Of a stretch of DNA of 64,000 nt, positions 75 through 4,841 are shown one piece after another (the first letter of the stretch is position 1; each line of letters begins with the position of its first letter). The stretch comes from Escherichia coli O127:H6 str. E2348/69 (GTDB taxonomy: Bacteria > Pseudomonadota > Gammaproteobacteria > Enterobacterales > Enterobacteriaceae). Location of the stretch: NCBI RefSeq assembly GCF_000026545.1, contig NC_011601.1, one strand, 5' to 3'. The notes under the pieces are model-generated. The model saw only the letters and a list, made by a program, of their open reading frames with translations. It did not search any database and had not been told where the DNA came from. A program made the translations under genes and the position numbers.

Positions 75-1049
75 ATGAGGAGTAGCAAAGTGCACTCAGA
101 AGAATTAAAAAATACACTTGGATTAGCTATTCAAATCGGGAAGCTAGCATCTGATCAAAGTGTATTAAAATTCTTTGAGCTTATCGATTTTGATGTTATT
201 CGTGATATACGCGACTTAACTGAGATGGTTAATAGCCACGGGTTTCTAAAAGATAAAATATCTGAGACTGATTTTCTAATAGCGAACGCTGAATTGGAGA
301 ACCACCATGTTAATGGTGTGGAGCTAATACCATATGGGTCTGAATTCTATCCTCTTAGTTTAGCTTTTACTCCTAATCCACCATCAATTCTCTACATAAA
401 AGGGGATAAAAGTATACTCAAAGAATTGCCGGGTGTCGCAATTGTAGGATCCCGTGATACCTCCCCTGCAGGGGAAGAAATAACGAGGCGGATCACTAAT
501 CAGATAGTGTCTGCTGGGTATATTGTTGTAAGTGGGTTAGCAATAGGCACTGATGCGAATGCCCACAAGGCAACGTTACAGGCAAAAGGAAAAACCATTG
601 CTGTCTTGGCGCATGGTCTTGAGGAGGCTAAGCCGAAGCAAAACAGTCGACTTGCTCAAGAGATTCTGGATAAAGGTGGTGCATGGATTTCTGAGTATCC
701 TATGGGTCGGCCGGCCCAGAAACAATCATTTGTACAAAGAAATCGGATACAAGTTGGATTATCTGCAGGTTCAATTTTAATCGAGGCTGCGTTAAATAGC
801 GGAACGATAACTCAAGCTGAGTTTGCAAATAAGGCGAAAAGACCAGTGTTTGCGGTTGTACCTCACCTACCTAATAATCCGCTTAATCTTAATTGTGAGG
901 GAACAGTTGATTTAGTTAAGAGCAACATGGCTAGAGCGCTAAAAACAAAACGGGATTATGATGATGTGATTATGATCATAAATGAGTCCCGGGAGTATTT
1001 GTTAGAGCTAAAATGGCCAGGGAAACAGAGTACATTAGACTTGATTTAA
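75..1049 (+). CDS. DprA/Smf-like (SLOG Rossmann-fold) protein, accessory cargo
   Basis: Translation carries the DprA signature (PPSILYIKGD...VAIVGSRDTSPAGEE...VVSGLAIGTDANAHKATL...RNRIQVGLSAG...PVFAV). Region is visibly AT-rich compared with the adjacent phage genes. Start may be the GTG at 90, which has a GAGGAG Shine-Dalgarno upstream. Confidence 0.6.
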   Translation: MRSSKVHSEELKNTLGLAIQIGKLASDQSVLKFFELIDFDVIRDIRDLTEMVNSHGFLKDKISETDFLIANAELENHHVNGVELIPYGSEFYPLSLAFTPNPPSILYIKGDKSILKELPGVAIVGSRDTSPAGEEITRRITNQIVSAGYIVVSGLAIGTDANAHKATLQAKGKTIAVLAHGLEEAKPKQNSRLAQEILDKGGAWISEYPMGRPAQKQSFVQRNRIQVGLSAGSILIEAALNSGTITQAEFANKAKRPVFAVVPHLPNNPLNLNCEGTVDLVKSNMARALKTKRDYDDVIMIINESREYLLELKWPGKQSTLDLI

Positions 1050-1073: not shown

Positions 1074-2102
1074 CTAAATTTGATATCTCTCGAATTTTAT
1101 AATTTCTTCACCGCTCCAATGATTAAATTCTTTCATTCTTTTTTGTAATGGTAATAATTCATTTTTCACAAATACCTTACTAGCTTTTTCTACATCCCCA
1201 AATCCCCCAACATTATTAGGCATTATCCCCATCATTTGTGGCGGCACACGATGCGCTGCCATCATGTCATCCCGACTCACGTTCTTGATGTTAAGAAATT
1301 CATCCTTCGCCGCGACTTCTGACAACGGGATGATCTGAAGCCCGTCCTTTTTGCCGTTAGGCGAGTACATAAACAGGTTGCGGAAGTTGCCAGGGCCTTT
1401 GGCGCTTTTCATCGCATTGCGGAGGTTGTTCACATCCTCCTGGTTCTGCGCGGCATCGGTCATGTACATGATGAAGCCTGCATGACTGCCGTTAATGTAA
1501 TACTTCCGGCGGAACAGCGTGGCGGACTCGTTGAGCAGGGCTGACGGAATGGCAGAAAGATAACCTGGCAGGCCGTAGATCTCCTGGTTGATGTCCGGTT
1601 CCATCAGATGAAAAATGCTGCCTTTCGTGAACTGATACGGCTGGGTTGTCATACCGTATTGCACAAACCAGTAGGTATCCAGGTCTAACCCGCGTCGGGT
1701 GTATTTTGCCAGAGCAGGCTCAAGGGCGATAACTTCACCGAAGCGGTTCGTGCGTTTCTCCAGGTAGGCGTTACCAAATACCAGATAGTCCTGCACAAAA
1801 CGTGAAAAAGCCTGCTGGCTGAGCAGCGGGTGAGGGATGTAGGTACTGGTCAGAATATTGCATTTCACCGCAATCGGTGAGCTGTGATGCACGGCGGCGC
1901 GAAAGGTGCGCGCCAGCCCGTCAAAACTCACTGGCGGCTCATACCATCGATCTGTCTGTACGCATTCCACATAGTCCAGCAGTTCACGGCGGTCCAGAAC
2001 AGGAACGGGATCGCCGAAGCTGAATGCTTCGGCTGAAGTCTGGCTTTTATGCTGGATCTGATTCATCGCCGCTACGCGGTTTTTTTTACTCTTTCCCATC
2101 AA
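1074..2102 (-). CDS. Q: portal protein (P2 gpQ-like)
   Basis: ~342 aa, position and orientation as in P2 (Q and P divergent from O); sequence recognised as P2 portal family. Confidence 0.9.
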   Translation of the reverse strand: MMGKSKKNRVAAMNQIQHKSQTSAEAFSFGDPVPVLDRRELLDYVECVQTDRWYEPPVSFDGLARTFRAAVHHSSPIAVKCNILTSTYIPHPLLSQQAFSRFVQDYLVFGNAYLEKRTNRFGEVIALEPALAKYTRRGLDLDTYWFVQYGMTTQPYQFTKGSIFHLMEPDINQEIYGLPGYLSAIPSALLNESATLFRRKYYINGSHAGFIMYMTDAAQNQEDVNNLRNAMKSAKGPGNFRNLFMYSPNGKKDGLQIIPLSEVAAKDEFLNIKNVSRDDMMAAHRVPPQMMGIMPNNVGGFGDVEKASKVFVKNELLPLQKRMKEFNHWSGEEIIKFERYQI

Positions 2103-3865
2103 AAAATCTCCACAATATTACTGGTATTGGCGGACTCGCCCTGCAGTGGTTCGTTAAACAGTGCGTGCATTGTTGCCCAGGCCAGATCGGCGTGGCTGGC
2201 TTCTTCGCTGCGGCTGGCTTCATAGGTCGGGCGGTTGCCACTGGCGGTGGTGGCGCGACGGATTGCCATAAATGACTGCGCTATGTCGGTGTGTCCGGCG
2301 TCAAACTCCAGACGGCGGTGGCTGATAATGTCGTAGGCCTTGAGTACCAGAGCGTTTTTAACGTTGGGGTTGTAGACAAACTCCCGGACGGCAGGAAAGA
2401 ACGCTTTCACGTTCTCATAAACCCCGTGACCGACGCCTGTCGAGTCGATGCCGATATAGGTCACGTTGTACTGCTCGGTCAGTTTTTTGATTGCATCAGC
2501 CTGGGCGCGGAAGTCCATCCCGCGCCACTGGTGACGCTCAAGAATGCGAAACTTACCGCCTGGCACGGCTGGCGGTGCCACCACCACGCATCCGGCGCTG
2601 TCGCCGTTCTGCGTACCTTTTGCCGGGTCATAACCGATCCACACCTCGCGCCAGCCAAACGGGCGCAGGGCCAGTGCATGAAAGTCGGTCCAGACTTCCC
2701 AACTGTCCACCATGCACGCCTGCAGTTCGCTGAGCGGGAACACGGACGCGAGATCGTCCACGAACTCGCACATCAGCAGGTTCTGGTATTCGTCCGGGCT
2801 GTACTCCATGCGTAGCTGGTCGAGGTCGAACAGGTTACAGCCGCCGCGCACCGCATCTTCCACGGTGACTATCTGGCGGTATTGCCCGTCTGCGCACAGC
2901 AGGCCGGGGGCCAGATTGTTGTGGGACAGGTCGATGTCCACCTTATCGGCTTTGTTGCGCCCACGGTTAAACAGCGCACCGGACCAGAACGGATAAGCAC
3001 TGTGTGTCAGGCTGGATGGCGTGGAAAAATAGGTTTGTCGCCATTTTTTGTGAATAGCCATACCGGAAGCCACTTTGCGCAGCTCCTGGAATTTCGGTAT
3101 CCAGAAATATTCATCCAGATACAGGTTGCCGTGGTAACTCTGGGCCGTGCGGGCATTGGTGCCGAGGAAGTACAGTGTGGCCCCGTTAGGAAGCACCATC
3201 GGATCGCCTTTCAGCTCCACCTCGACTTCTTTGGCGAAGTCGATGATGTACTGCTTAAAGACGTGGGCCTGAGCCTTGCTGGCGGAAAGGAAAATCTGGT
3301 TACGCCCGGTTAGCAGGGCGTCAATCAGGGCTTCACGGGCAAAATAGAAGGTCGCGCCGATCTGGCGTGACTTCAGCAGGTTGCGGATGCGGTTGGTTTT
3401 TCCGGCTTCCCACCAGTGGCGCTGGTAGTTGAACATGGAGGAATGGAAGATTTCTTCCAGCTTCTCAATCTGTTCATCGGTGAAAACGTTCTTTTCCGGC
3501 TGACGGCGCGGGCCTTTGTTGCGGTTGGCGACGTTAGGGTTTAAGTCGGCTTCGTTGCCGCCATTGTTAAACTTGCCGATCCGCGCATGGCGCTCCGACT
3601 GGCGCGCCAGCAGGTCAATCTCTTTGAAATCTTTCCCTTCTTTGTGCTCCTTCATAATGAGCTGACAGTAGCGTGCGGCGGTGGTGAGCTGCATCTGATC
3701 CAGCGGCCCATAGTCACCCCACTTGTCGCGTTTTTTCCAGCTGTGAACGGTTGCAACTTTCTCGCCCAGCATTTCAGCAATGCGGGCGACGCGGTATCCC
3801 TGAAAGTACAGCAGCATGGCCTGCCGACGGGGATCGAGATCTGCGGGTGTCAGTGTGGTGTTCAT
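2099..3865 (-). CDS. P: terminase large (ATPase) subunit (P2 gpP-like)
   Basis: 588 aa, overlaps Q by 4 nt, classic P2 Q-P operon arrangement. Confidence 0.9.
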   Translation of the reverse strand: MNTTLTPADLDPRRQAMLLYFQGYRVARIAEMLGEKVATVHSWKKRDKWGDYGPLDQMQLTTAARYCQLIMKEHKEGKDFKEIDLLARQSERHARIGKFNNGGNEADLNPNVANRNKGPRRQPEKNVFTDEQIEKLEEIFHSSMFNYQRHWWEAGKTNRIRNLLKSRQIGATFYFAREALIDALLTGRNQIFLSASKAQAHVFKQYIIDFAKEVEVELKGDPMVLPNGATLYFLGTNARTAQSYHGNLYLDEYFWIPKFQELRKVASGMAIHKKWRQTYFSTPSSLTHSAYPFWSGALFNRGRNKADKVDIDLSHNNLAPGLLCADGQYRQIVTVEDAVRGGCNLFDLDQLRMEYSPDEYQNLLMCEFVDDLASVFPLSELQACMVDSWEVWTDFHALALRPFGWREVWIGYDPAKGTQNGDSAGCVVVAPPAVPGGKFRILERHQWRGMDFRAQADAIKKLTEQYNVTYIGIDSTGVGHGVYENVKAFFPAVREFVYNPNVKNALVLKAYDIISHRRLEFDAGHTDIAQSFMAIRRATTASGNRPTYEASRSEEASHADLAWATMHALFNEPLQGESANTSNIVEIF

Positions 3866-3911
3866 GGCACAAACCTACAGCCTTGAATGAAGGCTTTCCC
3901 CGCCTGCGGTT

Positions 3912-3929
3912 TGTGTGGTTGTCGGTACA
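3912..3929. promoter_or_regulatory. TGT-N12-ACA dyad, candidate Ogr-dependent late promoter element for the O operon
   Basis: TGTGTGGTTGTCGGTACA lies ~80-95 bp upstream of the O start codon; P2 late promoters carry a TGT-N12-ACA element near -55. The pattern also occurs by chance, so the call rests on placement. Confidence 0.4.
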
Positions 3930-4007
3930 AATACCGCGCATTGTTTCACTGCCTCCATCACCGCAACCATAAGGCTCCAGTAAGTTTTTTCTAACGGAGC
4001 ACGGCTC

Positions 4008-4841
4008 ATGACAGTGAAAGCAAAGCGTTTTCGCATCGGGGTGGAAGGTGCCACCACCGATGGACGCGAAATCCAGCGTGAATGGCTGGAACAGATGGCA
4101 GCCAGCTACAACCCGGCGGTGTATACCGCGCTGATTAACCTTGAGCACATCAAGTCTTATCTGCCGGACAGCACCTTTAACCGCTACGGCAAGGTGACGG
4201 CGCTGTTTGCTGAAGAAATCACGGAAGGTCCGCTGGCAGGCAAGATGGCGCTGTATGCCGACGTTGAGCCAACGGAGTCCCTGGTGGAGCTGGTGAAAAA
4301 AGGCCAGAAATTATTCACCTCTATGGAAGTCAGCCCGAAGTTCGCTGATACGGGCAAAGCCTACCTGGTCGGCCTGGCTGCCACTGATGACCCTGCCAGT
4401 CTGGGCACTGAAATGCTGACATTCAGCGCCAGTGCAGCCCATAACCCGCTGGCAAACCGCAAGCAGAATCCTGCCAATCTCTTTACCGCTGCAGAGGAAA
4501 CGGTGATCGAACTGGAAGAAATCCAGGAGGACAAACCGTCCCTGTTTGCCCGTGTCACGGCGCTGTTCACCAAAAAAGAGCAGTCCGATGACGCCCGGTT
4601 CTCTGATGTGCATAAGGCCGTGGAACTGGTCGCCACTGAGCAGCAGAACCTGAGTGCGCGCACCGAAAAATCCCTGTCTGAGCAGGAAGAACGCCTGTCT
4701 GAGCTGGAGACTGCCCTGCAGGCACAGCTGACCGCCTTTAACGAACTGGTGGACAAGCTGAGCCATGAAGACAGCCGCCAGGACTACCGCCAGCGTGCAA
4801 CAGGCGGTAACGCCCCCGCTGACACTCTGACCAATTGCTGA
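4008..4841 (+). CDS. O: capsid scaffolding protein (P2 gpO-like)
   Basis: 277 aa, N-terminus MTVKAKRFRIGVEG resembles P2 gpO; synteny. Confidence 0.9.
   Translation: MTVKAKRFRIGVEGATTDGREIQREWLEQMAASYNPAVYTALINLEHIKSYLPDSTFNRYGKVTALFAEEITEGPLAGKMALYADVEPTESLVELVKKGQKLFTSMEVSPKFADTGKAYLVGLAATDDPASLGTEMLTFSASAAHNPLANRKQNPANLFTAAEETVIELEEIQEDKPSLFARVTALFTKKEQSDDARFSDVHKAVELVATEQQNLSARTEKSLSEQEERLSELETALQAQLTAFNELVDKLSHEDSRQDYRQRATGGNAPADTLTNC

Follow-up and report, generated by a model that had tools for sequence, protein, structure and literature searches.

The stretch of DNA analysed here (64,000 nucleotides of contig NC_011601.1, in the following called the window) comes from the enteropathogenic Escherichia coli (EPEC) O127:H6 strain E2348/69, to which it was 100% identical over the 6 kb compared. 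Its positions 1 to ~22500 hold the late half of a prophage that is P2-like and of the Wadgaonvirus type. This half matches, at ~96% DNA identity, Escherichia phage 500465-1 (a Wadgaonvirus of the Peduoviridae) as well as many Klebsiella prophages. Two late operons diverge in it. The leftward one begins with P (2099-3865, minus strand), which encodes the large terminase subunit of 588 amino acids (Pfam Terminase_6N 3e-65, Terminase_6C and Terminase_5; also assigned by the NCBI annotation pipeline PGAP), followed by the portal gene Q (1074-2102, minus strand; Pfam, PGAP), the start of which overlaps the P stop. The rightward one is headed by the capsid scaffold/protease gene O (4008-4841, plus strand; Pfam Phage_GPO 5e-113, PGAP) and continues with N (major capsid protein), M (small terminase), L, X, the lysis genes, R and S. 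The gap between the P ATG at 3865 and the O ATG at 4008 measures 142 bp and contains an 18-bp dyad, TGTGTGGTTGTCGGTACA (3912-3929, assigned to no strand), a perfect TGT-N12-ACA. From its centre, 3920.5, it is 55.5 bp to the A with which the P ATG begins and 87.5 bp to the ATG of O. We predict that this dyad is a binding site for an activator of the Ogr/B/Delta family which is common to the two divergent late promoters pP and pO.

The original prediction, made from the sequence alone, had placed such a motif in the P/O gap at a distance from O consistent with a -55 activator site. TGTGTGGTTGTCGGTACA was confirmed at 3912-3929, and its 87.5 bp to the O ATG are the distance also found in phage 186. 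The accompanying caution that so short a pattern is frequent by chance in 64 kb was justified as well: the bare TGT-N12-ACA occurs 11 times in the window, compared with 15.1 +/- 4.4 expected from shuffled sequences. As the bare pattern is not enriched, the argument has to rest on placement and homology. A perfect site arose by chance in 2.8% of the shuffles of the P/O gap, in 2.1% of those of the region upstream of V and in 3.9% of those of the region upstream of FI, and all three gaps are occupied. The joint chance of sites in all three late-promoter gaps is ~2e-5, with the positional constraint not yet counted. The placement of the motif at 3912-3929 is thus far beyond chance.

Homology with P2 and 186 points in the same direction. 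In a MAFFT alignment of the three P/O intergenic regions, TGTGTGGTTGTCGGTACA of the window, TGTGTCAGTGATAAGCCA of P2 and TGTGTGGGCGGTTGTCCA of 186 share the same columns. The P2 record (NC_001895) annotates a single 'activator binding site; pO, pP promoters' at 3057-3087, between the P start at 3016 and the O start at 3127; the 186 record (NC_001317) has a single 'B protein' site at 3798-3817, annotated as activator of pV and p12. With the start points taken from the curated GenBank promoter features, the P2 dyad is centred 55.5 bp from each annotated start, that of the P operon and that of the O operon. Alignment with the P2 late promoter regions was the check that had been proposed along with the motif, and its outcome was positive, in register with the annotated sites of both phages. 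The designation as an Ogr-dependent element upstream of O gains support from the alignment, the ogr gene and the sister sites described below, yet it was incomplete: as the P2 and 186 records give one site for both promoters, and the geometry on the P side is exactly 55.5 bp, the site would be an element of pP as much as of pO. That one activator site is common to pP and pO is, judged from these comparisons, highly probable. According to PMC3152322, the inverted repeats to which Ogr binds have their centre at about -55, and it needs RNA polymerase's alpha subunit; the same paper, citing Wood et al. 1997, gives P2 late transcription as requiring the activator and its contact with the C-terminal domain of that subunit. 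A consensus of TGT-N12-ACA is given for PP, PO, PV and PF in PMC3931495. Homology supports a predicted -55 position of the dyad relative to the transcription start.

Conservation of the region was examined at two depths. The 80 relatives of O retrieved from IMG/VR are all 99-100% identical and therefore informative on half-site invariance only; among them, substitutions in the 18-mer are confined to the central N12, and TGT, ACA and the TAGGTT hexamer of pP are invariant. The P/O intergenic region is identical in one IMG/VR relative (L006) and differs at 1 position in most others. In the more distant phages SEN8 (Felsduovirus) and KPC3phi13.6 (Gegevirus), TGTGTGGT...ACA is kept and the spacer is altered. 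We further located the P and O starts in 15 reference phages, which represent 13 named genera and one unclassified Peduoviridae record. In each of the enteric members a single TGT-N12-(A/C)CA lies between P and O, at a distance of 81.5-95.5 bp to the O ATG, and an equivalent of the motif occurs at the same position in 10 or more Peduoviridae genera.

A predicted cognate activator is encoded in the same prophage. The gene at 22205-22423 (plus strand), just short of the prophage end, where the host gene ybjL follows, encodes a 72-amino-acid Ogr homologue with a CX2CX22CX4C zinc finger (Pfam Ogr_Delta 6.7e-22; 'ogr/Delta-like zinc finger family protein' in PGAP). The protein is 51% identical to P2 Ogr and 54% to 186 B, and the four cysteines are invariant. 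It is only 63% identical to the Ogr of 500465-1, with the divergence mostly in the C-terminal part, though the flanking late DNA is ~96% identical; on sequence grounds this suggests a mosaic exchange at the prophage end.

V and FI are the other two places at which P2 has late promoters, and each of them holds a perfect site in the window. The site before V, TGTGCCAAAAATCATACA when read toward V (13262-13279, no strand), is centred 54.5 bp from the V ATG at 13216 (minus strand), which makes pV a predicted leaderless promoter. The site before the sheath gene FI, TGTGTGAATAACGGTACA (15186-15203, no strand), is centred 85.5 bp from the FI ATG at 15280; with the -10-like CAACAT at 15238-15243 the predicted +1 is near 15250. 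The FI site and the P/O site share the flanks TGTGTG...CGGTACA. For all three sites of the window the start point, predicted or inferred by homology, is 54.5-55.5 bp away. The distance from site centre to V ATG is 55.5 bp in 500465-1, and AACTAT or CAACCT lies 6 nt upstream of the V ATG. The pV site sequences of the window and of 500465-1 are unrelated, and the spacing is preserved. The layout was seen at 13216-13279 (minus strand) in the window, at 16160-16226 in L003 and at 10243-10310 in L001. In the P2 record the start of the V operon is the first base of the V coding sequence, and gene V appears, from its spacing, to be leaderless in the window also.

On the P side the arrangement departs from that of P2 and 186. 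The -10-like hexamer of pP, TAGGTT (3877-3872, minus strand), stands in the register of the P2 hexamer TAGCCT. In P2, TAGCCT is followed by 6 nt, the annotated +1, a 23-nt leader with GAGG and the ATG; in the window, TAGGTT is followed by 6 nt and the ATG, in the same register relative to the dyad. Thus the predicted +1 of pP is the A (3865) of the P start codon (3863-3865, minus strand), 55.5 bp from the site centre. No Shine-Dalgarno motif was found at -16 to -5 relative to this ATG. The start codon itself appears to be assigned correctly: an in-frame TAG lies five codons upstream, the Pfam domain Terminase_5 begins at residue 11, the N-terminal length agrees with that of P2 and 186 P, and the first 15 codons of the window and SEN8 differ by synonymous changes only. 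These observations argue that this ATG is the true start, and PGAP assigns the same one. On this evidence we consider it rather more probable than its opposite that the P-Q transcript starts with its own AUG and is leaderless. Leaderless genes are known in E. coli from few sources, of which P2 is one according to PMC4633059 (with reference to Christie and Calendar 1985); the same paper puts leaderless expression in E. coli at ~10% of leadered expression. One might speculate that weak leaderless expression would suit a need for terminase that is low compared with that for capsid proteins. In the one literature library searched, no prior description of a leaderless terminase in P2-like phages was found; as evidence of novelty this is weak.

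A second perfect TGT-N12-ACA, TGTGGTGTTCATGGCACA at 3854-3871, was considered as a pP-specific site and rejected, since it overlaps the P start codon and is downstream of any possible pP. It is not conserved (SEN8 has CCA for ACA, and KPC3phi13.6 lacks the TGT) and was judged fortuitous.

On the P side the layout of the reference phages varies by group. The distance from site centre to P ATG is 55.5 bp, with no leader, in the window, 500465-1, SEN8 and KPC3phi13.6; the corresponding values are 56.5 bp in Yersinia YenM_31.17 and, with an N13 dyad, 56 bp in Burkholderia KS5, both again without a leader. Also with an N13 dyad, phiCTX has 57 bp; no Shine-Dalgarno motif was found there and its hexamer is not TAnnnT. 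The leadered phages are P2, 186 and Kp4885-2 (78.5 bp, a 23-nt leader with GAGG), P88, OXA48phi5.4 and 3LV2017 (71.5-75.5 bp, a G-rich Shine-Dalgarno-like run) and YenM_42.18 (103.5 bp, no Shine-Dalgarno motif in the interval scanned). Seven of the 15 reference phages, from 6 genera that include those of Burkholderia KS5 and Vibrio Kappa (TATGAT in Kappa), carry TAnnnT at positions -12 to -7 relative to the P ATG, and none of the seven has a Shine-Dalgarno motif. Five of the seven leadered reference phages have one in the interval scanned; the GGGGGAG of P88 is just outside it and YenM_42.18 has none.

Two scans of IMG/VR with the P N-termini of YenM_31.17 and KS5 as queries yielded 160 loci (56-100% identity). 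Every one of the 86 unique analysable intergenic regions has a TAnnnT hexamer before the P ATG, separated from it by 6 nt (53 regions) or 7 nt (33 regions), and the hexamers vary (TAACGT, TACCCT, TAGCCT, TAGTCT, TATGTT and TATTTT). A TGT-N11-13-ACA centred 55-57.5 bp from the P ATG is present in 71 of the 86. Most of the 24 loci which the motif filter had removed show the same layout on inspection. In non-enteric relatives the -10 hexamer, the 6 nt and the P ATG are kept and the upstream dyad is changed. In phiCTX (L088) and KS5 (L096) it is a TGT-N13-ACA centred 56-57 bp from the P ATG, and Vibrio phage Kappa (L098, 1277-1449) has another palindrome with 9-bp arms, TTCGGATAT-N6-ATATCCGAA, centred 67.5 bp from the P ATG. 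ESSI-2 has a gap of 23 bp. With the N13 spacing of phiCTX and KS5, the palindrome of Kappa and the 23-bp gap of ESSI-2, the TGT-N12-ACA rule is not universal.

The O side is of the conventional type. The -10-like hexamer of pO, AACCAT (3965-3970, plus strand), aligns with GAAACT of P2 and 186, and the CAACAT of the window's pF is found at the same distance from its site. A weak -35-like TTGTTT (3941-3946, plus strand) lies 18 nt upstream of the hexamer. Transfer of the P2 spacing places the pO start near 3976, and AACCAT would place it at 3977-3979; the predicted start (3976-3979, plus strand; 55.5-58.5 bp from the site centre) rests on the pO start of P2. The predicted leader of ~30 nt contains the Shine-Dalgarno sequence GGAG (3996-3999, plus strand), 8 nt before the ATG at 4008 and conserved in SEN8 and KPC3phi13.6. 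The distance from site centre to O ATG is 87.5 bp in the window and in 186 and 95.5 bp in P2, where the annotated start is 55.5 bp from the centre. For pP, the -35 position reads GGGAAA. Both promoters have a -10-like hexamer (TAGGTT in pP, AACCAT in pO) and no functional -35, which is consistent with activator dependence. A scan of 3700-4200 for sigma-70 consensus promoters found none, which is expected for activator-dependent promoters.

These observations can be combined into the following picture. The dyad at 3912-3929 would be the operator for the prophage's own zinc-finger activator of the Ogr/B/Delta type (22205-22423), situated midway between the back-to-back late promoters pP and pO. 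With a -10-like hexamer only and no usable -35 at either promoter, the host RNA polymerase should need an activator bound ~55 bp upstream, and one activator-bound dyad would recruit polymerase in both directions. Rightward transcription from pO would start at ~3976-3979; its mRNA, for O and the head and lysis genes behind it, would have a conventional ~30-nt leader with GGAG. In the leftward direction, transcription from pP would start at 3865 and yield a leaderless terminase-portal (P-Q) mRNA. We infer here the binding of the activator, the dependence on it, the precise start points and the translation without a leader, and we hold the explanation as a whole, that is, a shared site, divergent activator-dependent promoters and a leaderless P, to be likely with good confidence. 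A wider version is put forward with less assurance, although we lean towards it: apart from the P2/186 clade, most Peduoviridae may have leaderless P-Q mRNAs, the P ATG being preceded by TAnnnT at 6-7 nt and by the site at 55-57.5 bp. The 23-nt Shine-Dalgarno leader would then be specific to P2/186, a single site would give two very different translational outputs, with scaffold and capsid at a high level and terminase and portal at a low one, and V would be leaderless likewise.

Several points weigh against this picture. The Ogr of the window is only 51-54% identical to Ogr and B, and its specificity is thus assumed. All start points are predictions by analogy, transferred from the P2 and 186 annotations. 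The -10 of pO is ambiguous (CAACCA, AACCAT or TAAGGC), which allows a start anywhere in ~3976-3982, and the start of pP may be 1-3 nt upstream of the ATG. Leaderless translation is described as weak in E. coli in PMC4633059. The queries of the IMG/VR scans came from phages that are already leaderless in layout, and many of the sequences are phylogenetically related. Finally, the prophage is tail-defective, and the site may no longer serve virion production in E2348/69.

Another explanation would be that the motif is a chance copy of a short pattern and has no regulatory role. The unenriched bare pattern and the evidently fortuitous second perfect match at 3854-3871 would fit this. However, a chance copy would hardly align in register with two annotated activator sites, recur at the same position in all enteric Peduoviridae examined, keep its half-sites invariant while the spacer varies and be accompanied by sister sites at the other two late-promoter regions (joint chance ~2e-5), so that this explanation is very improbable and is already effectively refuted. 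A regulatory role of another kind could be imagined from the likeness of TGTG...ACA to half-sites of CRP, or from the 5-bp hairpin with T-run that a simple scan flags at 3923-3936; the motif would then be the site of a host regulator, an RNA element or part of a terminator. The consensus of CRP has 10 nt between TGT and ACA, whereas the motif has 12; the terminator-like hairpin was discarded, as it is not conserved in SEN8 or KPC3phi13.6; and an Rfam search of 3600-4300 gave no match to an RNA element even at E<=1. We regard these roles as extremely unlikely.

It is also unlikely that the site activates pO alone and that P-Q is transcribed from another promoter, activator-independent or separately controlled, which would supply the P ATG with a conventional leader. 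The starts here are predicted, which leaves room for another arrangement, a second TGT-N12-ACA exists at 3854-3871, and PMC4633059 describes leaderless translation as inefficient in E. coli. Yet both the P2 and the 186 records annotate one site for both promoters, 3700-4200 contains no sigma-70 consensus promoter, the second match is unconserved, shares bases with the P start codon and is situated downstream of where any pP could be, and the TAnnnT-N6-ATG layout is conserved without a Shine-Dalgarno motif in all 86 unique IMG/VR regions and in 6 reference genera. A different matter is whether the circuit is a decaying relic that the defective prophage does not use and that responds at most to the activators of a superinfecting P2-like phage or P4-like satellite. 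The rearranged tail cluster (S and H truncated, tail-fibre assembly genes deleted, V-W-J-I-H' inverted), found among the matches listed in E2348/69 assemblies only, speaks for it. The site, both -10 hexamers, the sister sites and the ogr frame are all intact, however, with no sign of regulatory decay, and one IMG/VR relative has exactly the same intergenic region, from which most others deviate at 1 position. We take the relic to be less likely than not; it concerns the current use of the site and not a different mechanism.

The state of the prophage deserves a closer description. Window 9738-14509 is inverted with respect to 500465-1 and to an intact relative in E. coli NCTC11121. The inverted block carries a gene for a hypothetical protein of 384 amino acids, pV, V, W, J, I and the 5' part of H. 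The remainder of H, its 3' end, is lacking, as are both tail-fibre assembly genes, and S (from 9369) is annotated as a pseudogene without the C-terminus. With these tail genes missing or truncated, the prophage cannot make tails. The inversion junctions read TAAACGTAGGT joined to ATGTGAGAA and ...AGTAACCTACGTTTATGAAAA. A repeat search detected no crossover sites at the junctions, but direct reading showed that in them a crossover-like sequence of S is fused with the crossover site of H and with the invertase-proximal site. The full rearrangement is contiguous only in three E2348/69 assemblies, among the matches listed. Next to the block, a DNA invertase of the Hin/Gin type (14526-15137, plus strand; Resolvase and HTH_7) is retained though the normal invertible tail-fibre segment is lost, and the junctions point to aberrant action of this adjacent invertase as the cause of the rearrangement. 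In the defective prophage the predicted late switch (site, hexamers, sister sites and ogr) is intact as far as its sequence goes.

Two further genes of the late half were noted. The hypothetical gene of the inverted block (13299-14453, plus strand) is a cargo gene between S and V, on the opposite strand and in the place of P2 orf30. It is absent from 500465-1 and present in several E. coli prophages; PADLOC gave no match, and Pfam only a sub-threshold tRNA-synt_1e (1.8e-4). At the left end, the gene at 75-1049 (plus strand) encodes a DprA-like/SLOG protein (Pfam DNA_processg_A 1.4e-60) with a PADLOC match to ShosA of the Shosta anti-phage system (2.8e-70). It adjoins the portal gene Q, the position of old and tin in P2, and its ShosT partner would be to the left of the window start.

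On the sequence evidence, then, 3912-3929 is a genuine but ordinary predicted late-gene activator site of the known P2/186 type, and the leaderless terminase is the sole part that a specialist might not expect. The analysis fixes the late regulatory layout, three predicted activator sites for four late promoters with the cognate ogr present, for a genus of P2-like prophages that is widespread in E. coli and Klebsiella but unstudied. The defective EPEC prophage keeps an intact late switch before its head and lysis genes; in principle, this switch could be triggered by a P4-like satellite or by a P2-like phage that superinfects. If the start site of P were confirmed, a large conserved family of leaderless mRNAs would be added, in phages of enterobacteria, Burkholderia and Vibrio, to the handful of leaderless genes that E. 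coli is known to have. Such a result would further point to a simple means by which one bidirectional control site could set the stoichiometry of terminase to capsid.

In comparison with known systems, the region is by its predicted features a late promoter region of the P2/186 type, with the dyad, the activator gene, the late-operon position, the sister sites and no usable -35. Like the window, P2 has divergent P and O genes with a single mid-gap dyad that aligns in register, a TAnnnT -10 of pP 6 nt before +1, a site centre 55.5 bp from the pP start and a gene for an Ogr-family activator after gene D at the prophage end. The geometry of the FI promoter of the window equals that of P2 pF and 186 pJ. 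The P2 V gene, with its operon start on the first base of the coding sequence, has the layout that V and P of the window show (site centre 54.5 bp from the V ATG and 55.5 bp from the P ATG). In the window V and P are both predicted to be leaderless; in P2 this layout is confined to V, and 23 nt of leader, GAGG included, separate +1 from the P ATG. P2 further differs in the right half of the site (CCA instead of the perfect ACA of the window) and in the length of the intergenic gap (173 bp versus 142 bp); the O and P proteins show only ~44% identity or moderate similarity, and the genus is Peduovirus and not Wadgaonvirus.

Phage 186 has, like the window, one annotated activator site for both divergent promoters, p12 and pV. 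The left halves of the two sites are nearly identical (TGTGTGG) and the centre is 87.5 bp from the scaffold ATG in both. Unlike the window, 186 has CCA as the right half of its site and, before the terminase gene, a 23-nt Shine-Dalgarno leader. A more distant parallel is Smp131 of Stenotrophomonas, for which PMC3931495 reports a TGT-N12-ACA-like 18-mer (nt 4381-4398, both strands) assigned to PP' and PO', together with an Ogr-like CX2CX22CX4C protein; there the host is a distant one and the promoter assignment is a prediction only. Measured against P2 and 186, the predicted regulatory region of the window thus differs in three respects, namely perfect ACA half-sites, a shorter gap and a P gene without a leader.

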